From positions 64,001 through 128,000 of IMG/VR virus record IMGVR_UViG_3300014205_000175: DNA of 64,000 nucleotides; one strand, given 5' to 3'. Source of the DNA: a virus. Lineage: Duplodnaviria > Caudoviricetes. A model generated the notes under the pieces. That model did no database searches. It saw only the letters and a program-made list of their open reading frames with translations, and was not told the DNA's origin. Below, piece by piece: positions 2,897 through 56,145 of this stretch (positions within the stretch are counted from its first letter, which is position 1; each line of letters opens with the position of its first letter). A program made the position numbers and the translations under genes.

Positions 2897-2918
2897 TAAT
2901 TTCCAAGGAGCCGCCATC

Positions 2919-3485
2919 ATGAACGAGAAACTGCAGGAACTCGCTGATGAATGCCGCCGCAACTTCATGTTCTCAAAGAAAATCGAAGGTGGATACATCG
3001 GACCGAAGGGTGAGTTCATTCCTGTTCCTGCCGGCATTAGGCGCGTCGGCTTCAACTATGCCAATGGCAATGGTGGGTGGAGAATTGATCTAAAGTCAGG
3101 AAATAAAGCAAAAACCCGATTAGAAGTACGAGACTCACCTTTCCATCATGACTACATGGCCTCGTTGCAAGAAGCCCTCCGGCAACTTCATATACTCAAA
3201 CCAGAAGGGTTGTTGAAATCACAAACACGACATGCAGTAAAAGAACACGCTCACAAAAAAATAAAACTAGGAGTCGTCGGCGTTAGGTTCAATACCGCAT
3301 TTTCTCGCGGACATTGCTACCATTCTTTCATCGTAATGTGGGGGAAGAAGCGGAAAACAATACCTATCCCCCGCGACTACACCCAAGCTCAGTTTGATGC
3401 AGGTTTGGAAAAAGCCAAAACCATACGTCAGGAGTTTGAGCGCATCAAGTTGGAGAAGAGTCGCTTTACCACTGACAGTAAATAA
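2919..3485 (+). CDS. Putative AP2-like DNA-binding protein, paralogue 1 of 5
   Basis: 188 aa, very basic; FSKKIxGGYxGPKGEFIPVP N-terminus; two GV/GI-beta-strand/helix modules resembling AP2 domains; no HNH motif. Confidence 0.6.
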   Translation: MNEKLQELADECRRNFMFSKKIEGGYIGPKGEFIPVPAGIRRVGFNYANGNGGWRIDLKSGNKAKTRLEVRDSPFHHDYMASLQEALRQLHILKPEGLLKSQTRHAVKEHAHKKIKLGVVGVRFNTAFSRGHCYHSFIVMWGKKRKTIPIPRDYTQAQFDAGLEKAKTIRQEFERIKLEKSRFTTDSK

Positions 3486-3547
3486 TCTTCCGCCATATAC
3501 TAGGGCTAACACTACCGTCAGCCCACTAAATCTAAGGAGCTTCCAAT

Positions 3548-4114
3548 ATGGACAAGGAACTGAAAAAGCTTGCCGCTGAATGCCGTCACAAGTTCATGTT
3601 CTCAAAGAAAATCAAAGGTGGTTACATCGGGCCGAAAGGCGAGTTTATTCCTGTCCCGACAGGCGTCAGACGCAATGGCCGTGACTACGCCAACGCCAAC
3701 GGCGGATGGAGAATCAGCATAAGATCGAAACATAAAACAGAAATCCAGATAGATGTGCGGGATTATTGTTTCCATCACGATTACAAGGCTTCGTTACAAG
3801 AAGCCATTCGACAACTGAGTACTTTCAGACCGGAAGGGTTGCTAAAATCGCTAAAGCTACACACAGAAAAAGAACGCAGTCATAAAAAAATAAAACTAGG
3901 AATCTCTGGTGTTAGGTTCGAAACCTTGGACTGTAAGGGTCGACGTTATTATTATTTCACAGTAACGTGTGGGAAAACACAACGAAGAGTACCTGTCCCT
4001 CGTAACTACACCCAGGCTGAGTTTGATGCAGGTCTGGAAAAAGCCAAAACCATGCGTCAAGAGTTCGAACGTAACAAGATGGAGAAGAACCGTTTTACCG
4101 CTGACCTTAAATAA
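3548..4114 (+). CDS. Putative AP2-like DNA-binding protein, paralogue 2
   Basis: 188 aa, clearly alignable to 2919..3485; AAGGAG RBS. Confidence 0.6.
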   Translation: MDKELKKLAAECRHKFMFSKKIKGGYIGPKGEFIPVPTGVRRNGRDYANANGGWRISIRSKHKTEIQIDVRDYCFHHDYKASLQEAIRQLSTFRPEGLLKSLKLHTEKERSHKKIKLGISGVRFETLDCKGRRYYYFTVTCGKTQRRVPVPRNYTQAEFDAGLEKAKTMRQEFERNKMEKNRFTADLK

Positions 4115-4177
4115 TCGCTCGTTGTACATTCGGGTTAGCACTATCGCTAACCCGTTAATTTCTAAGGAACTACCACT

Positions 4178-4744
4178 ATGGACGAGAAACTGAAAAAACT
4201 GGCCGACGAATGCCGGTTAAATCGCATGTTTTCAAAGAAGACTGACGGGGGCTATTTTGGCCCGCGTGGAGAATTTATCCGTGTTCCTACCGGCATTGCG
4301 AGAATTGGTCGCAACTACGCTGAGAAATCCGGCGGGTGGAAAATTCACATCTTGAAAGCAGGCCAGCCTAAAATTATTATTCCGGTCAGGGATTCTCAAT
4401 TCAGTGGTGACTACATGGCTTCGCTACGTAAAGCCATTAAACAGTTGTCCGAACTCAAGCCCGACGGGGTGTTGCTTTCTAAAAAAGGTGTCAAGAAAAC
4501 CGAGGCTTCTAATAAACAGGTAAAGCTAGGAATGGCTGGCATCAGATTCAATCGTATCACTCGTAACGGAAAATCCTATTACTCATTTTCAGCGCTATGC
4601 GGGGATAAAAAGAAAACAGTCTGCATTCCTCCAGATTACACACCTGCGCAATTCGATGAAGGTTTAGCGAAAGTCAAAACTCTTCGAAGCGAATTTGAGC
4701 ATCAGCACACCCAAAACCGTCTTTTTACTGGCGGTAGTGTGTAA
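4178..4744 (+). CDS. Putative AP2-like DNA-binding protein, paralogue 3
   Basis: 188 aa, same motifs (FSKKTDGGYFGPRGEFI, YTPAQFDEGL). Confidence 0.6.
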   Translation: MDEKLKKLADECRLNRMFSKKTDGGYFGPRGEFIRVPTGIARIGRNYAEKSGGWKIHILKAGQPKIIIPVRDSQFSGDYMASLRKAIKQLSELKPDGVLLSKKGVKKTEASNKQVKLGMAGIRFNRITRNGKSYYSFSALCGDKKKTVCIPPDYTPAQFDEGLAKVKTLRSEFEHQHTQNRLFTGGSV

Positions 4745-4791
4745 CATATTTGAGCTAGTAATATCGTCAGTCCCCTATAGGAGCTTCTACC

Positions 4792-5358
4792 GTGAAACAA
4801 GACTTACAGAAGATCGCCGACGAGTGTCGCGAGAAACGCTGCTTCTCCAAGAAAATCGGGAAAGGATGTTTTGGTCCTAAAGGTGAATTTATTCCACTAC
4901 CTACGGGTATTAGTCGCAAAGGAAAAAATTTCATTTACTCAGGTAGCTGGATAGTCAGAACACATACAAGAAACTTGCCTCCGATCATATTCACATTCCT
5001 AGACTCTGATGTTCATTGTGATTACATGGTATCTTTGAGCAGAGCCATCGAGAAACTAAAAGAACTCAAGAATAATAAAGTGTTCGTGACAGGCAACCAC
5101 CTTAATCAACACGAAAGTAAAAGCAAGAAACTGAAATTTGATATCGTAGGAGTTAGTTTTCACCTCCATAAAAGACGAATGTGTAGACTGCCGGTTCCTA
5201 CTTTTACCGCGTCGTGCGGTTACAAACGGAAAAAATTCACACTGCCTTGTATCTACACCCAGGCACAGTTCGATTCCAAACTGAAAGAAGCTATAGCCTG
5301 GCGTAAGGAGATGGAAAAACAGCGGTTGCAGGAAGTCGGGTTCGATAAGTTCAAATAA
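4792..5358 (+). CDS. Putative AP2-like DNA-binding protein, paralogue 4
   Basis: 188 aa, GTG start with AGGAG RBS; most diverged of the four tandem copies. Confidence 0.6.
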   Translation: MKQDLQKIADECREKRCFSKKIGKGCFGPKGEFIPLPTGISRKGKNFIYSGSWIVRTHTRNLPPIIFTFLDSDVHCDYMVSLSRAIEKLKELKNNKVFVTGNHLNQHESKSKKLKFDIVGVSFHLHKRRMCRLPVPTFTASCGYKRKKFTLPCIYTQAQFDSKLKEAIAWRKEMEKQRLQEVGFDKFK

Positions 5359-5448
5359 CCGATAGCGATTCCGATGCACCTGCTCTGCTACTTTGGTCTA
5401 CTAGCCTTGTAGTGGGGTTATTCGGTTTTTAACTATATAGGTATTCCC

Positions 5449-5919
5449 ATGAAACAACTCCGCGATACCCTATCTAAAGTTCTTAGGTCGACCCATCCTC
5501 ACAGCGAAGTAGAGACTCTCATTGCCAATACCGTGACTAAGTACGACATACAGCGAATCATCGAACACGGTTCACTGATATCGTTGCCGGTTAAAGAGAG
5601 CTCTCCCTCTCGGCTAGGGGAATGCCACGCTATGACCGCTTATCAACACATGCTCAACCCTTCGATCCAAGTGTACAGTGGATTTTGCTTGATCTTTGAG
5701 GACGTAGTAGCTGATCAGTGGTATCACCATAGTTTCGCAGTACAAGATGGCTACATACTCGAACCCACTAACTGGATAAGAAATAAGTATTTTGGGGTTG
5801 CGTTAGACCGTCAACAGACCCGTGCATTCGTTCTTAACGAAGTGGATAAACTACTGGCATTAGCTAAATGGATGGATCTAGACACTGACTTGATCGCCAA
5901 CTATCGTCACACTCACTGA
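5449..5919 (+). CDS. Hypothetical protein, possible transglutaminase/papain-like fold
   Basis: GECH ... VYSGF ... WYHHSF ... GYILEPT spacing resembles a Cys-His-acid triad. Confidence 0.4.
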   Translation: MKQLRDTLSKVLRSTHPHSEVETLIANTVTKYDIQRIIEHGSLISLPVKESSPSRLGECHAMTAYQHMLNPSIQVYSGFCLIFEDVVADQWYHHSFAVQDGYILEPTNWIRNKYFGVALDRQQTRAFVLNEVDKLLALAKWMDLDTDLIANYRHTH

Positions 5920-5929
5920 GGTTCTTGTT

Positions 5930-6346
5930 ATGCTCATTTCAGCAGCAGCTATCCAGCATTTGCGTCAGCAAGAAATTCAGAAACATCCGGATGAACGCGT
6001 CTTGATAGGTTCTCCGTGTGAATATTTTTTCATGACCTACAATGAAGATTCTGATAATGTAGTCTGTGGTGTGAAAGCTGTAATCATAGAACTTAGCAAA
6101 TTTTCCACCGAGACTGAAGTGTTTGCTGCCGATCTAGCGATTCTATCTCACGTACCGGAAATGTACGTGCGGTGTGAAGATTTGAAAGTTGTTGGGAGGA
6201 AACTTACTGACGCCGATGGTGATGAGTCGATTTGTTTTATCGAGGCACAGCACTACAAAGAAATCATTCAAACCATTAATGACAACTATCGACCAAATTC
6301 CAGTAGTCTTCGGCTGGTTTGGTCTAACGATAAGAAAGATCAATAG
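5930..6346 (+). CDS. Hypothetical protein
   Basis: 138-aa ORF with GAGG RBS, in operon. Confidence 0.6.
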   Translation: MLISAAAIQHLRQQEIQKHPDERVLIGSPCEYFFMTYNEDSDNVVCGVKAVIIELSKFSTETEVFAADLAILSHVPEMYVRCEDLKVVGRKLTDADGDESICFIEAQHYKEIIQTINDNYRPNSSSLRLVWSNDKKDQ

Positions 6347-6356
6347 AGGTATCATC

Positions 6357-6980
6357 GTGCAAACCATCAAAGTCAATACTCGTGAAGAACTCATCGCTAT
6401 CGTCCGTGCTGCAGCACCTGACGCGGATCTGAATCACTTTGATGTGAGCGACATCACCGATATGTCGTGGGTATTCTGTAATAGTCAGTTCAACGGTGAC
6501 ATCTCGGGATGGGACGTCAGTCGTGTCACCGATATGGACGGTATGTTCAACAGTAGCTCGTTCAACGGCAATATCAGCCGATGGGATGTATCGCGCGTTA
6601 CTGATATGTATGCAATGTTCGCCGATAGCTCGTTCAATAGCGACATCTCAGGATGGGATGTATCGCACGTTACTGACATGGCTGGCATGTTCGGCGACAG
6701 TCAGTTCAACGGCGATATCAGTCACTGGAACGTATCAAATGTCACTGACATGGCTGGCATGTTCGCGTATAGTCACTTTAATGGTGATATCTCGGCGTGG
6801 GATGTGGGACAGGTTATCGACATGGAAGAGATGTTTGGCGATAGTCAGTTTAATGGTGACATTTCTAAATGGAACGTTAGCAACGTCATCAACATGCGAT
6901 GGATATTCAGCGACAGTCAGTTCAACGGTGATATCAGTAGTTGGAACATCAATCCCGGAGCTAGTGTGACACCAGCATAA
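6357..6980 (+). CDS. DUF285/BspA-type leucine-rich repeat protein
   Basis: About 7 tandem 24-aa repeats FNGDISxWDVSxVTDMxxMF. The likely GTG start at 6357 (GAGG RBS) matches the MQTIKV start of the paralogue at 24939. Confidence 0.85.
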   Translation: MQTIKVNTREELIAIVRAAAPDADLNHFDVSDITDMSWVFCNSQFNGDISGWDVSRVTDMDGMFNSSSFNGNISRWDVSRVTDMYAMFADSSFNSDISGWDVSHVTDMAGMFGDSQFNGDISHWNVSNVTDMAGMFAYSHFNGDISAWDVGQVIDMEEMFGDSQFNGDISKWNVSNVINMRWIFSDSQFNGDISSWNINPGASVTPA

Positions 6981-6989
6981 CTAATAAAC

Positions 6990-7046
6990 CATCCACAGGC
7001 GCAGCCTTAACGGGCTGCGCCTGTGGATGACAGAAATTATTTTTTT
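6990..7046 (+). terminator. Intrinsic terminator
   Basis: CATCCACAGGCGCAGCC / GGCTGCGCCTGTGGATG perfect long stem, with downstream T tract. Confidence 0.75.
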
Positions 7047-24788: not shown

Positions 24789-24872
24789 TACCGTCACTCT
24801 TCCGGCCGTATAAAGGTCGGAAGAGTGATTTTACGTTTTTAGGTTGAGTGGTAGTGAAGTTTTTTTCAGTCA

Positions 24873-24911
24873 CATATATATTACGTGAAGACTGCCGCTC
24901 TGGCGTCTTTC
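24873..24911 (+). promoter_or_regulatory. Early-promoter-like motif plus leader hairpin
   Basis: CATATATATTACGTG followed by GAAGAC(T)GCC-GCTCT-GGCGTCTTTC, a variant of the 2872 and 42314 hairpins. Confidence 0.7.
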
Positions 24912-24938
24912 TATCTTCTAATACCAGGAGCCACCACT

Positions 24939-25499
24939 ATGCAAACCATCAAAGTCACCAGCCGCGAAGAGCTTATCAACATCATTCATCGAGCGCCATT
25001 GAACGCAGATTTGAACCATCTGGACGTAAGTGCAGTCACGGACATGAGTCTGGTGTTTGCCGGCAGTCGGTTCAACGGCGACATTTCGAAGTGGGATGTA
25101 TCCCGAGTTACCAATATGAACTCTATGTTCTCTGATGGCTGGTTTACTGGCGATATCTCACAGTGGGATGTCAGTCAGGTAACTGACATGAACGGTGTGT
25201 TTTCATGTAGCCAGTTTAATGGCGACATCTCGTGCTGGAATGTCTCATCCGTCAAAGACATGGGATGGATGTTTGCTGGCAGTCAGTTTAACAGCGACAT
25301 CTCGCGCTGGGATGTCAGTCACGTAACCGATATGCGTTGGATGTTCCACAAAAGTCTGTTCAACGGCGACATTTCGAAGTGGGATGTGGGTAACGTTAAG
25401 ATCATGAAGGCGATGTTCAGATGCAGTCGGTTCAATAGTGACATCAGTCGTTGGAGTATTGGTCCCGATACGGACGTCAACGGCATGTTCGACAAGTAA
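24939..25499 (+). CDS. DUF285/BspA-type leucine-rich repeat protein, paralogue 2
   Basis: About 6 repeats of FNGDISxWDVSxVTDM; AGGAG RBS before ATG 24939. Confidence 0.85.
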   Translation: MQTIKVTSREELINIIHRAPLNADLNHLDVSAVTDMSLVFAGSRFNGDISKWDVSRVTNMNSMFSDGWFTGDISQWDVSQVTDMNGVFSCSQFNGDISCWNVSSVKDMGWMFAGSQFNSDISRWDVSHVTDMRWMFHKSLFNGDISKWDVGNVKIMKAMFRCSRFNSDISRWSIGPDTDVNGMFDK

Positions 25500-25524
25500 C
25501 TTCAATTAACAGGAGATCCGCATC

Positions 25525-51934: not shown

Positions 51935-53767
51935 ATGGCTATCACCAGCAACGTCAACATGGGCACGACCAACCAACAAAGCGCCAAGCAATCTTCCAGT
52001 GGTAATGCTCCCCGTGTCGGGTTCATCGCTGGTTCGATGTTCGGTGCTCCCATCGGTCGTGGCATCGGCTCGGAATACCTCAACAAGATCTCGGAGAATC
52101 TCGGCGAGATCTATAAGACCGCCAGTGCGGAGTTTCAGATCGATCTGATCGTGCTCGATAAGGCTAACGAGCTCTCGCTCGCCTTCTCAGCGATCGCGGT
52201 CTGCACCCGCACCAACAACGTCAATGTCGTGGGTGTGCATGTGCTGCTCGTCGAAGGCACGGGCGAAGCGCTCAAATCGGCCTACGAGAGCTTTAACAAC
52301 CAACAAGTCGAGATCACCCGCGTCACCTCCGACGCGTTCGACCAAGTGCTCGTCAACCTCGTCAACGAGCGAGTGGGCAAAGCGTTCCCGAATACGCAGA
52401 TCCTGATCGTCGATGGCTGCGTAGTGCCCGAAGAGTTCCAGCCGGACAACAAGCTGCATATGCGCATGCTCGCGCAAAACGCAGCCATGGCTGGTGGTAC
52501 TGAAGTCGATCTGCGTGCACCGGGCTTCTCGGATATCAACATTTCGGAAGATGGTCGTGGTACCAACCTGATCGTCGAGATCGGCTTCGAGCATAAGCAA
52601 CTCGATGACGCAGTGGGTATGCCGATGCGCTCGGACGTGATGATCCAGTTCCGCAGCCATCGTCCGGGTCAAGGAGCGAACCAGTCGGTCAACTCCAACG
52701 ACCGCGATATGAGCATCTCGGAGCTCTCCGGTTTCATCGACATGCTGTATGCGCCGGTGCAACCGCAGGTCAACAATCCGTGGGCACCGCAGATGCCGGG
52801 GGTGACGCAGAAGTTCGCGTCACGTTTCGTTATCACCAACCTGGCTACGACGATTGGCTACACGCCGGGCATGGTGCTGCTGTCGCTCGCAAGTGCACTG
52901 ACGCTCAACAACGACGGCAACTGGATTCAGAGCTTCCGTCCAATGGGTGCTGCAGGTGGGGCGAAGAACATCGATATCTATGATGTGGGTGCGCTGAATA
53001 TCGAGGGTAACCTCGAAAATAGCCCGACGGGTTTCGGTCAAGCACCGGACACCAAGTCGCGGGACTTCTCGCTGGAAGATCTCGGGACGTTCGTTAGCAG
53101 CCTTGTGCGTCCGGGCATCATGATCAGTATCGATGTACCTGACTGCGGCCCGCAGACCTGGTACACCAGCGTGTTCCGTGATGGTTCCAATGGTTCGCAA
53201 GCAGCGGTCGATCGCATCTATGACGCAGCCATGCAGCTGACCAATGGCAACTTCAGCAAGCACTTCGCACCAGGCATCCCGATGTTCGAAGACCAGTTCA
53301 ACCGCGTGCATCTGGGTTACTGGACGGATCAGCATGGCGCCCGCCGTGACATCCGCGACATCGATTATCTGGCAGCCGCCAACCTGATGGGCCGCAATAG
53401 CCCTGAGTATCTGCGCGACTGGAGCGATACGTTCCTGCGTGTGCAGTATCCGCTGCCGATGCGTCTGGCAGGACGCAAGAAGATGATCGAGAACCTGACG
53501 AACATGACTGCTGTGTTCAAGGGTTTTGCGACACGTGTGACGTTCAGCGCGCCGTTCCTGATGGCGCTCGCCCGTGCTTGCACTGAAGCTGGTCTGATGC
53601 CGCAGGTTAAAACGCCGCTCTCCGCACTGGACTTCAACACCCAGCGTGGCGTGGCAGGCTTCGTCAACACCGCACTGATGGCTCCGGGACACAACTTCGG
53701 CGTCACCGGTTTCGGTAACTACAACCCGGCCGCTTACGGTAACCCCAACATGTACCACCGTTGGTAA
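51935..53767 (+). CDS. chmA: Chimallin, major phage nuclear shell protein
   Basis: 610 aa, strong AAGGAG RBS, highly biased codons, GYWTD..G.RRDIRDIDYLA motif, G/N/Y-rich tail; immediately upstream of the nvRNAP beta'-N gene as in phiKZ (gp54-gp55). Confidence 0.85.
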   Translation: MAITSNVNMGTTNQQSAKQSSSGNAPRVGFIAGSMFGAPIGRGIGSEYLNKISENLGEIYKTASAEFQIDLIVLDKANELSLAFSAIAVCTRTNNVNVVGVHVLLVEGTGEALKSAYESFNNQQVEITRVTSDAFDQVLVNLVNERVGKAFPNTQILIVDGCVVPEEFQPDNKLHMRMLAQNAAMAGGTEVDLRAPGFSDINISEDGRGTNLIVEIGFEHKQLDDAVGMPMRSDVMIQFRSHRPGQGANQSVNSNDRDMSISELSGFIDMLYAPVQPQVNNPWAPQMPGVTQKFASRFVITNLATTIGYTPGMVLLSLASALTLNNDGNWIQSFRPMGAAGGAKNIDIYDVGALNIEGNLENSPTGFGQAPDTKSRDFSLEDLGTFVSSLVRPGIMISIDVPDCGPQTWYTSVFRDGSNGSQAAVDRIYDAAMQLTNGNFSKHFAPGIPMFEDQFNRVHLGYWTDQHGARRDIRDIDYLAAANLMGRNSPEYLRDWSDTFLRVQYPLPMRLAGRKKMIENLTNMTAVFKGFATRVTFSAPFLMALARACTEAGLMPQVKTPLSALDFNTQRGVAGFVNTALMAPGHNFGVTGFGNYNPAAYGNPNMYHRW

Positions 53768-53788: not shown

Positions 53789-53827
53789 GCATCCACCCGG
53801 CCCTCATAGCCGGGTGGATGTTTTTTT
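53789..53827 (+). terminator. Intrinsic terminator after chmA
   Basis: CATCCACCCGGC-...-GCCGGGTGGATG followed by T7. Confidence 0.8.
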
Positions 53828-53898
53828 GTTTCGCTGGTGTAAAACATCCACCCGACACATATCTGCTGGGTTTAGAACGAGCCAAGGAGCGACACCAT

Positions 53899-56145
53899 AT
53901 GCCCATATATCAACAGTTGGTGAATTTCACTGAGATGTTCCATCAGCTACGGGAACCACCGATCATTATCAACGATCTGCCTAATTCTACCGAGGAGGAG
54001 CGTGACTACATCACGCAGCTCATCACTACCCATTACAACAGCGACATGTTGTCGATTCTGCCTTCGTGTCGCTGTGGTAAAACCAAAGGCGAGTATGAGA
54101 TTGGGTCATTGTGCGCATACTGCAAGACCCCAGTTAAGTCACATATCTCGGAGGATATCGAACCACTCGTATGGTTCCGTCGTCCGATCGGTGTGGCGCC
54201 GCTGATCAACCCACATATCTACATCATGCTGCGCAATCGGTTTCGTAGGTCAGGTTTTGAAGTACTAGACTGGCTCACTGACACCACCTTCAGCACGAAC
54301 AGCAAACAACCTGCGGTACTCAAAACTATCCTCAACGCAGGCGTGCAACGCGGTTACAACAATTTCATAAACAACTTCGATTTCATCATGGGTGTGATGT
54401 TTTCGATCAAAGACTATAAGTTGAAAAAGGGTAAACGCGATTATCTCAGAGAACTCATCGCTCTTAACCGCGGGCAGCTATTCTCGGATTATATCCCGCT
54501 ACCGAATAAATCGCTGCTGGTGATCGAGAACAACAACCTCGGACGCTATGCGGATAACTCGATGGTGATGGCGATCGATGTGATACGCATGATCACTTCG
54601 ATCGACCGACGCTTTTCCGAACACAATGTGATCCTGCGCGAGAACCGTACCGCCAAAGCGATCACACGACTGGGAGACTTCTATGAGGCGTTCGTATCGA
54701 AGAACATGTCACCTAAGCCGGGCTTGTTCCGTAAGCACATCTTCGGTAGCCGTTCGCATTTCTCGTTTCGAGCAGTTATCACCAGTCTAACTGACCGCCA
54801 TGCGTACGACGAGATCCATGTGCCGTGGGGGATCGGGGTGACGGTGCTGCGTGACCACCTGCTCGCTAAGATGATGCGTATGGGCTATGCGCTCAATGAT
54901 GCGATAGGTATGCTACATGGTCATGTACATAACTATAACGAGATGCTCGATCAGCTTTTAAAGGAGATCATCGCTGAGAGTCCGGATTCTAGTTTAATCG
55001 CAATTTTGCAACGGAATGAAAAGCAGTAACTGTTGTAATATCTAATACGATACTGCGACTGGTTTACTGGGTTCCCTTCAGCAGAAATGCTGTCGACAAA
55101 ACTTCGTGAACTGCTGGAACACCCTGAAGGCTGCGCCACCACAAGCACCCCGAAAGGAGGTGTTGACGGTTTGACAACGGCGCGGATGAAGCACTGTGAA
55201 GTGCGGAAAGGGGCAACCGTAGGCTCTAAGAGCCTCTTTAGCAGCCAAGCTCCTACAGCTCAATAGCCACGGAGAAGGTTCAACGGCCATCGAAAGCACT
55301 GTCACCGACAGGAAGCAAGTAGAGTAGGACTCCTAGCGGGGTCCGAAGTGCGAAGCACCCGACCGAGTGACGTCGAGGGTGAAGATATGGTCTGCTCCTG
55401 TATGAACAGTACAGGCGGGTGTCTCAGCACACCGGGATGATGTAGCGACTCATCTGGACAGTAAGCCAAGTTTATTGCAAGGCTCGGCACAACGCGTCAG
55501 AATCACGAAGATCAAAACCGACCCTACCGATAACACGATTTCAATGCCTATTGAAATCGTACGCGCCCCCAATGCTGATCAACTTTCAGGTCCGGCTGTG
55601 CAGTAATGCATAGTTGTAATCTCCTTAATTGCTGGAACACCCTTAAGGCTGCGCCACCACTGCGAGTCGAAAGACAAAGCCATGGTTCGATAACGGCGCG
55701 GATGATCCGTACGTAAATGCGGTGAAAGGGGCAACCGTAGGCTCTAAGAGCCTCTGTAGCAGCCGATCTCCTAAGGCCTTAGGGCTATGGAGCGGGTTCA
55801 ACGACTAGCCCTTTAGCAAGGCGTAGGACTCCAAGCGGGGTTCGAAACAGGAGACATCCTTAACGGGATGAAGATATAGTCTGCCCCCGTATGAAAGTAC
55901 GGGCGGGTGTCTGAGCACACCGGGACGAGACAGTAGTATAAGCGACTCGTCTGGACAATGGGTTTGATGGGGACGCTTTGAACGTGATCTTAGCGTTAGA
56001 CAAGAAAATGGGGGATTTGATGCAGCCACTGGAGCCGCACTACAACGTGTTCGAAGCTAACCGTCCGCGGGCGATCTCGAACAACGTCGGATTACCCAAA
56101 CCGGTAGTCGCGACGATTGCGCACTGGTTGTCCAAGGGAGCGTAG
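53899..56145 (+). CDS. Non-virion RNA polymerase beta'-like subunit (phiKZ gp55-like), spliced: join(53899..55017,55466..55579,55963..56145), 471 aa
   Basis: Zn-finger CRC...CAYC, KPGLFRKHIFGSR. Joining the exons gives ILQRN|PSLLQGS...RAPNAD|FDGDALN and restores the NADFDGD catalytic motif. Confidence 0.9.
55018..55465 (+). ncRNA. Group I self-splicing intron 1 (448 nt, no ORF)
   Basis: 5' exon ends in U; GUUCC (55071-75) can pair with exon GGAAU via U.G; P/Q AACTGCTGGAA and AGCAGCC; P7 GGCCAT / ATGGTC within GAAGATATGGTC; terminal G. Confidence 0.88.
55580..55962 (+). ncRNA. Group I self-splicing intron 2 (383 nt, no ORF), inserted in NAD|FDGD
   Basis: 5' exon ends GAU; AATTGCTGGAA, AGCAGCC, R element TTCAACGACTA, S element AAGATATAGTC; terminal G before TTTGATGGGGAC. 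Confidence 0.9.

Follow-up and report, generated by a model that had tools for sequence, protein, structure and literature searches.

Two ORF-less group I introns in the nvRNAP beta'-N gene of a chimallivirus: probable homing remnants with a site-bound 5' module and exchanged core segments

The window analysed here is a 64,000-nt stretch that spans positions 64001-128000 of a viral contig (G000) of 202,826 nt, ~75% complete. On its plus strand, a gene for chimallin, the nuclear shell protein (51935-53767; phrog_4795, E 1e-84; PF25677), is followed on the same strand by a gene in three exons: exon 1 (53899-55017, 373 codons, ending in LQRN; phrog_2987 positions 1-380; PDB 7OGP chain A, E 2.8e-64), exon 2 (55466-55579, 38 codons, PSLLQGS to RAPNAD; phrog_2987 positions 381-418, E 3.4e-11) and exon 3 (55963-56145, FDGDALN to the stop codon; phrog_2987 positions 419-475), the equivalent of phiKZ gp56.1. 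In profile searches, the three exons tile PHROG 2987 with neither gap nor overlap. Because the chimallin gene lies directly upstream, gene content assigns this uncultured, nucleus-forming giant phage to Chimalliviridae and the split gene to the phiKZ gp54-gp55 position. Homology to gp55, the NADFDGD motif and the location after chimallin identify the product as a Chimalliviridae nvRNAP beta'-N subunit.

The first-pass annotation of this DNA had proposed that two ORF-less group I introns, at 55018-55465 and 55580-55962, interrupt the gene, that excision of 831 nt (junctions CGGAAT|CCAAGT and GCTGAT|TTTGAT) restores an open 471-aa frame with NADFDGD, and that the middle exon measures 114 nt. Coordinates, junctions, the 831 nt and the exon length proved exact. 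From the ATG at 53899, the spliced frame runs for 471 aa without stops, all exons being in phase 0, and the spliced protein gives a single uninterrupted alignment with gp381 of the intronless FLC9 (46%, E 4e-144). This ATG is preceded by AAGGAG at 53884-53889 and aligns with the starts of homologues; an alternative ATG at 53818 (498 aa) was dropped, as the ribosome site and the homologue starts favour 53899. Synthesis of nvRNAP would indeed depend on two splicing events, as had been suggested: unspliced or singly spliced RNA is predicted to yield products of 376 or 419 aa in which the full motif is absent.

Intron 1 (55018-55465, plus strand, 448 nt) lies at RN|P and intron 2 (55580-55962, plus strand, 383 nt) at NAD|FDGD, within the catalytic motif. 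In the covariance-model search that had been put forward, both introns are matched by RF00028, whose cut-off is 50 bits: intron 2 exceeds it with a score of 64.1 bits, and the full-length match to intron 1 reaches 32.9 bits (E 2.6e-6) and falls short of it. Covariation supports both assignments, and same-site alleles further support that of intron 1. P7 is formed by 55285-55289 with 55388-55392 in intron 1 and by 55803-55807 with 55877-55881 in intron 2.

Both introns have the claimed U before the 5' splice site, which forms a U·G pair in P1, and the claimed terminal G. The P1 pairings described as plausible were refined: the U·G and the guide pairing are present, intron 2 having just 3 bp plus C+1:G and intron 1 no pair at +1. 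In intron 1, the guide, P2 and a site-specific J2/3 motif, TCGACAAAA, lie at 55071-55096 (plus strand). The guide, GUUCC, lies after an enlarged L1 loop, where the HNH gene sits in relatives, and forms 5 bp with exon GGAAU, with the U·G at -1; the first base of the intron, G, cannot pair at +1, unlike in the other RN|P introns examined. In intron 2, same-site comparison and the P2 fold place the guide G-GUCC and the P2 helix at 55589-55615 (plus strand), G55590 pairing with U-1 and G55589 with C+1. The GGC that comes next belongs to P2, which limits exon pairing here to 3 bp (GUC with GAU) plus C+1:G; a 6-bp bulged P1 was dismissed on the same ground. The guide GUCC is present in all 15 NAD|F introns examined, and in 13 of them position +1 is paired with the nucleotide just ahead of the guide, in the variants C-G, U-A and A-U, a covariation that lends comparative support to the predicted 5' splice site of intron 2. 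Candidate P10 pairings with the 3' exon reach just 3 bp in intron 1 and 4 bp in intron 2.

When the core structure drawn from intron 2 was laid over 19 related cores, 96.3% of the cells were paired, and 27 of the 44 core pairs showed changes on both sides, a count reached by none of 500 shuffles and far above slid controls. Helices P3, P4, P6, P7, P8 and P9 were all recovered, and the first P7 pair is G-C in 19/19 cores. Subgroup IA2 is defined by P7.1 and P7.2 between P7 and P3', with a G-U-A linker (PMC3428280). Both elements and the GUA linker, as judged by eye, occur in both introns, P7.1 being extended in intron 1, and we class the two as IA2-like. An extra 6-bp hairpin in J5/4 (intron 1, 55219-55239; intron 2, 55737-55757; both plus strand and supported by covariation) lies, in intron 2, within a 32-nt block identical to intron 1. 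Across six introns, all six of its pairs are kept, four of them with changes on both sides; the L082 and L203 introns carry it as well. To our knowledge, such a hairpin does not belong to the described group I subgroups. Neither intron contains an ORF on either strand, the longest stop-free stretch being 84 codons, nor does either match the intron ORFs of relatives, and neither is classed as endonuclease-encoding.

In order to place these introns within the family, ~170 orthologous gp55 loci (the best 80 per scan) were collected and introns were mapped with a spliced aligner; 145 loci in 102 clusters were fully covered, and introns of 550 nt or less were counted as ORF-less. One or more introns lie between RNP and DFDGD in 38 of the 102 clusters, at least two in 15, and none in 64. 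The 77 introns mapped fall into 12 site/phase classes; 50 are short (<=550 nt) and 23 have an ORF of at least 190 aa. A U end and a G end were each found in 75 of the 77, counts that are partly built in because the aligner rewards such ends. L144 shares both ORF-less sites with the window phage, and ~9 cultured Phikzviruses have two ORF-less gp55 introns, at RN|P and N|AD. Both insertion sites are thus recurrent in Chimalliviridae gp55, which answers the comparison with phiKZ-family orthologues that the annotation had called for. Since gp55 introns are common across the family, phiKZ and cultured Phikzviruses included, the two-intron architecture is, as far as these alignments tell, ordinary for Chimalliviridae. 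Its rarity had been overrated, given that the known intron of phiKZ lies at N|ADFDGD and that pairs of introns without ORFs are frequent. In the part of the literature covered, nothing relevant was found on introns at the DFDGD site, chimallivirus intron surveys or the shuffling of phage intron cores.

Several loci deserve mention in their own right. The gp55 gene at L101:6144-7664 has four ORF-less introns, with exons of 102, 12 and 9 nt, and that at L008:7174-8293 has three, with a 12-nt exon, the third seemingly ending in A and not G; the intron at L144:1808-2178 also ends in A. Two NAD|F introns (L011:7643 and L203:4234) follow a 5' exon that ends in C and not U. At ~6408-6900 of L114, L175 and L176, the aligner gives NAD-C-FDGD, one codon extra, which may reflect another splice site or a variant motif. 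Introns of this family are also found in two other phages within a DnaB-like helicase gene (L013:864-1155 and L034:4184-4490). Pattern matches in IMG/VR (L016-L019) turned out not to be introns.

The closest known system is phiKZ gp55/gp56/gp56.1, the same gene, with a group I intron within the NADFDGD codons and a last exon, gp56.1, equivalent to exon 3. In phiKZ, however, a single intron lies at N|ADFDGD, upstream of the intron 2 site by 6 nt, and encodes the HNH protein gp56, whereas the window phage has introns at RN|P and NAD|F, neither of them with an ORF. PMC11512511 refers to introns in gp55. Splicing of the predicted phiKZ introns went undetected in ONT sequencing (PMC10914365), yet the phiKZ chain in PDB 7OGP is a fused gp55-gp56.1 with a continuous NADFDGD. 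Among the cultured Phikzviruses, Pa_AttikonH10, Bobae, PA_ZH1, KEN19, PhiPizzaParty and kmuB, among others, carry two ORF-less gp55 introns, the first at the identical RN|P and with a 108-nt middle exon; their second site, however, is N|AD, their two cores fall in separate parts of the tree and they are without the J5/4 hairpin. The introns are not annotated in the AttikonH10 GenBank record. In one further reported system, a different gene in another phage family likewise has several similar introns and short exons, and splicing was shown there.

Relatives carry endonuclease-bearing alleles at both sites of the window phage, with the ORF inside L1. At RN|P, HNH-bearing alleles occur in fMGyn-Pae01 and ANB1 (both HNH by PHROG), L007, L126 and the close relative L206; at NAD|F, long-ORF alleles, most of them HNH-like, occur in the sister phage (L069; 72% identical at the aa level) as well as in L086, L087, L127, L136, L192 and L207. 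Within Phikzvirus, empty, HNH-bearing and ORF-less states are all present, and the eroded, AT-rich L1 loops of L011 and L131 are intermediates. The series of gain, decay and ORF-less states is, in the alleles compared, complete, as expected of homing introns. Because both sites carry HNH-bearing alleles in relatives, introns 1 and 2 are probably homing remnants.

A third ORF-less intron (408 nt; G000:C1:130944-131351, L004:1460-1867) lies 2.9 kb past the end of the window and interrupts the nvRNAP beta gene at DMHGG|KGV; the frame of that gene opens once the intron is removed. The end of this intron, GGACAATGGG, is the same as that of intron 2, and the same site (GG|K) is occupied in PhiPA3 and empty in the sister phage. 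An Rfam search of the contig returned just these three group I introns, all in nvRNAP genes. The 203-kb contig (~75% complete) yielded no intron-type HNH, NUMOD4 or GIY-YIG gene, and no free-standing partner endonuclease was found beside the introns, as collaborative homing would involve. Elsewhere in the contig, a dCTP-deaminase-like gene (G000:C1:133716-135623) has an intein-like insert (GKSTYAR|CF...KN|C) with the only HNH-like motif of the genome (weak HNH_3). Paralogous ORF families, tandem or dispersed and some with internal repeats, occur at ~2900-7000 and 24850-25500 of the window and at 147900-151700 and 180300-182100 of G000. In the sister phage (G004; L031-L033), the vRNAP gene holds two introns and the gene matching G000:92550-93527 is likewise intron-bearing; none of these genes is interrupted here.

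The history of the cores and that of the 5' parts appear to differ. In a tree of 291 core columns, whose bootstrap had not converged, the cores of introns 1, 2 and 3 and of the sister phage's vRNAP intron form one clade with 100/100 support, and the three cores of this genome are 70-80% identical to each other. The core of the sister's NAD|F intron is 56% identical to that of intron 2, against 76-80% for clade members from different sites, and tying intron 2 to this same-site intron was rejected (p-AU 0.006, for a group chosen after the tree was seen). Only 3 of 33 same-genome core pairs are at least 75% identical, two of them from this genome. The 5' parts, by contrast, follow the insertion site: the best eight matches to that of intron 1 are all RN|P introns; the module of L206 is 83% identical to it over 54 nt, and the best match to that of intron 2 is the sister's NAD|F intron. 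The J2/3 motif, which exon pairing does not need, is found in 7 of 10 RN|P introns and in 1 of 59 others. Within the cores, informative sites run for 11 consecutive positions of one split and then mostly another, although stem compensation inflates the run-test p-value; intron 1 and L136 are identical in 69 of 71 nt of one block, with cores that are 69% identical overall. Because L203, whose host protein is here near-identical to that of the sister, carries at NAD|F an ORF-less intron whose core resembles those of the window phage, this core type seems to circulate in the lineage and is not unique to this genome.

Guide/P2 modules thus follow the insertion site, and the cores, mosaic in themselves, follow the lineage. 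Because site-tracking 5' modules are combined with lineage-grouped mosaic cores, we infer that recombination between introns shuffles core segments. Hall, Liu and Shub reportedly described, in 1989, how the td, nrdB and sunY introns of T4 recombine by homologous exchange between conserved cores; here, exchange is read from natural mosaics and the 5' module stays site-specific. A second core swap between the HNH-bearing and ORF-less RN|P alleles of Phikzvirus was considered and dropped, since the two match at 80% outside a P5 extension that is deleted. Separately, the co-resident gp55 introns of L011:7148-8120 and of L131:1717-2324 are mutually closest (100/100 and 100/99, respectively).

Together, these findings lead us to propose, with fair confidence, that introns 1 and 2 are homing-derived IA2-like introns that lost an HNH gene in L1, with a site-bound 5' module and swapped core segments. 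Each would have reached its site as an HNH-bearing mobile intron, and the HNH gene would then have been lost through deletion within L1. Persistence at RN|P and NAD|FDGD would require no benefit, because at conserved codons only precise deletion should be viable. The 5' targeting part (P1 guide, L1, P2 and J2/3) would remain with the site, and core segments and peripheral hairpins would be swapped with other introns of the lineage, the beta-gene intron included, through recombination or gene conversion. Splicing would proceed by the two-step GTP/Mg2+ pathway that is standard for group I introns. An occupied site may incidentally block rival HNH nickases, as a side effect and not as a demonstrated cause of retention.

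Whether such protection could itself be the reason for retention is the alternative that fares best: under homing immunity, ORF-less introns are kept since they break the targets of rival HNH endonucleases. This is plausible in view of the precedents, and we regard it as possible, if doubtful. HNH-bearing alleles exist in relatives at exactly the two sites, 50 of the 77 gp55 introns are ORF-less, and one intron endonuclease is known to be harmful to a chimallivirus in co-infection (PMC11620839). In this regard, the annotation had cited endonuclease introns in phiKZ-like RNAP genes and interference by their nucleases; precedents for both exist, but in the interference case published in Science in 2024, the intron of PhiPA3 gp210, which encodes the nuclease, the gene is that of the virion RNAP. 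Introns are also known to shield targets, as the psbA intron of S-PM2 does against F-CphI in collaborative homing (PMC6083498), a system whose partner endonuclease has no counterpart found here, and I-PfoP3I leaves intron-plus DNA uncut; the phage HNH nickases I-HmuI and I-HmuII, however, also cut intron-plus DNA (PMC3428280). Moreover, close relatives have empty sites, the sister phage being empty at both RN|P and beta GG|K, neutral persistence predicts the same distribution, and the phage nucleus keeps foreign nucleases out unless import is shared. A stronger version, in which nucleus-forming phages actively retain ORF-less introns as 'site plugs' that keep out rival homing endonucleases, each built of a site-specific 5' module and parts from an interchangeable ribozyme pool, the extra J5/4 hairpin among them, seems to us unlikely; if true, the polymerase active-site codons would be an arena with ~12 insertion positions.

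The resemblance between the three introns of this genome could also mean that one ORF-less ribozyme spread within the genome to three sites by reverse splicing or transposition, as proposed for clustered phage introns. The single clade of 70-80% identical cores, the common end of introns 2 and 3 and the contig's lack of any intron-type HNH gene would fit such a spread. We nevertheless hold it to be improbable, given that all three sites are filled in other phages (PhiPA3 at GG|K, for example), that the 5' modules of introns 1 and 2, J2/3 motif included, resemble same-site introns and not each other, and that the cores are mosaics and not copies. Still less probable is a regulatory gate, in which the introns are kept so that nvRNAP output or skipping of exon 2 depends on conditions. 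All three introns of the genome do lie in nvRNAP genes, exon 2 is in frame, so that its skipping would yield a 433-aa subunit without NAD, and exon skipping is seen in phage Twort (PMC3073962); yet the sites vary freely, 64 of 102 lineages are intron-free at this place and such introns also turn up in other genes of relatives, those for vRNAP and a helicase among them, and a regulatory role finds no support beyond intron location. Finally, an assembly chimera or dead pseudogene is barely conceivable: the contig is metagenomic, and a Logan contig, identical up to that point, breaks at the exact 32-nt block common to both introns, but an ENA assembly (k141), which may derive from the same sample, is identical over 2937 nt across the locus, the exons are intact and conserved, the helices are compensated and the shared blocks differ in detail.

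As judged from sequence comparison, the introns are real and had been correctly described, in a family already known for such introns. In practice, truncated annotation is routine for gp55 orthologues: among the 120 nearest database proteins, most are fragments of 370-430 aa. In cultured Pseudomonas Phikzviruses, the intron 1 site is found empty (phiKZ), HNH-bearing (fMGyn-Pae01, ANB1) and ORF-less (LC, AttikonH10), and therefore the old question of why endonuclease-free introns persist becomes directly testable. A 5' module that tracks the site, joined to a mosaic core that tracks the lineage, would provide a clean natural case of group I introns evolving in parts.
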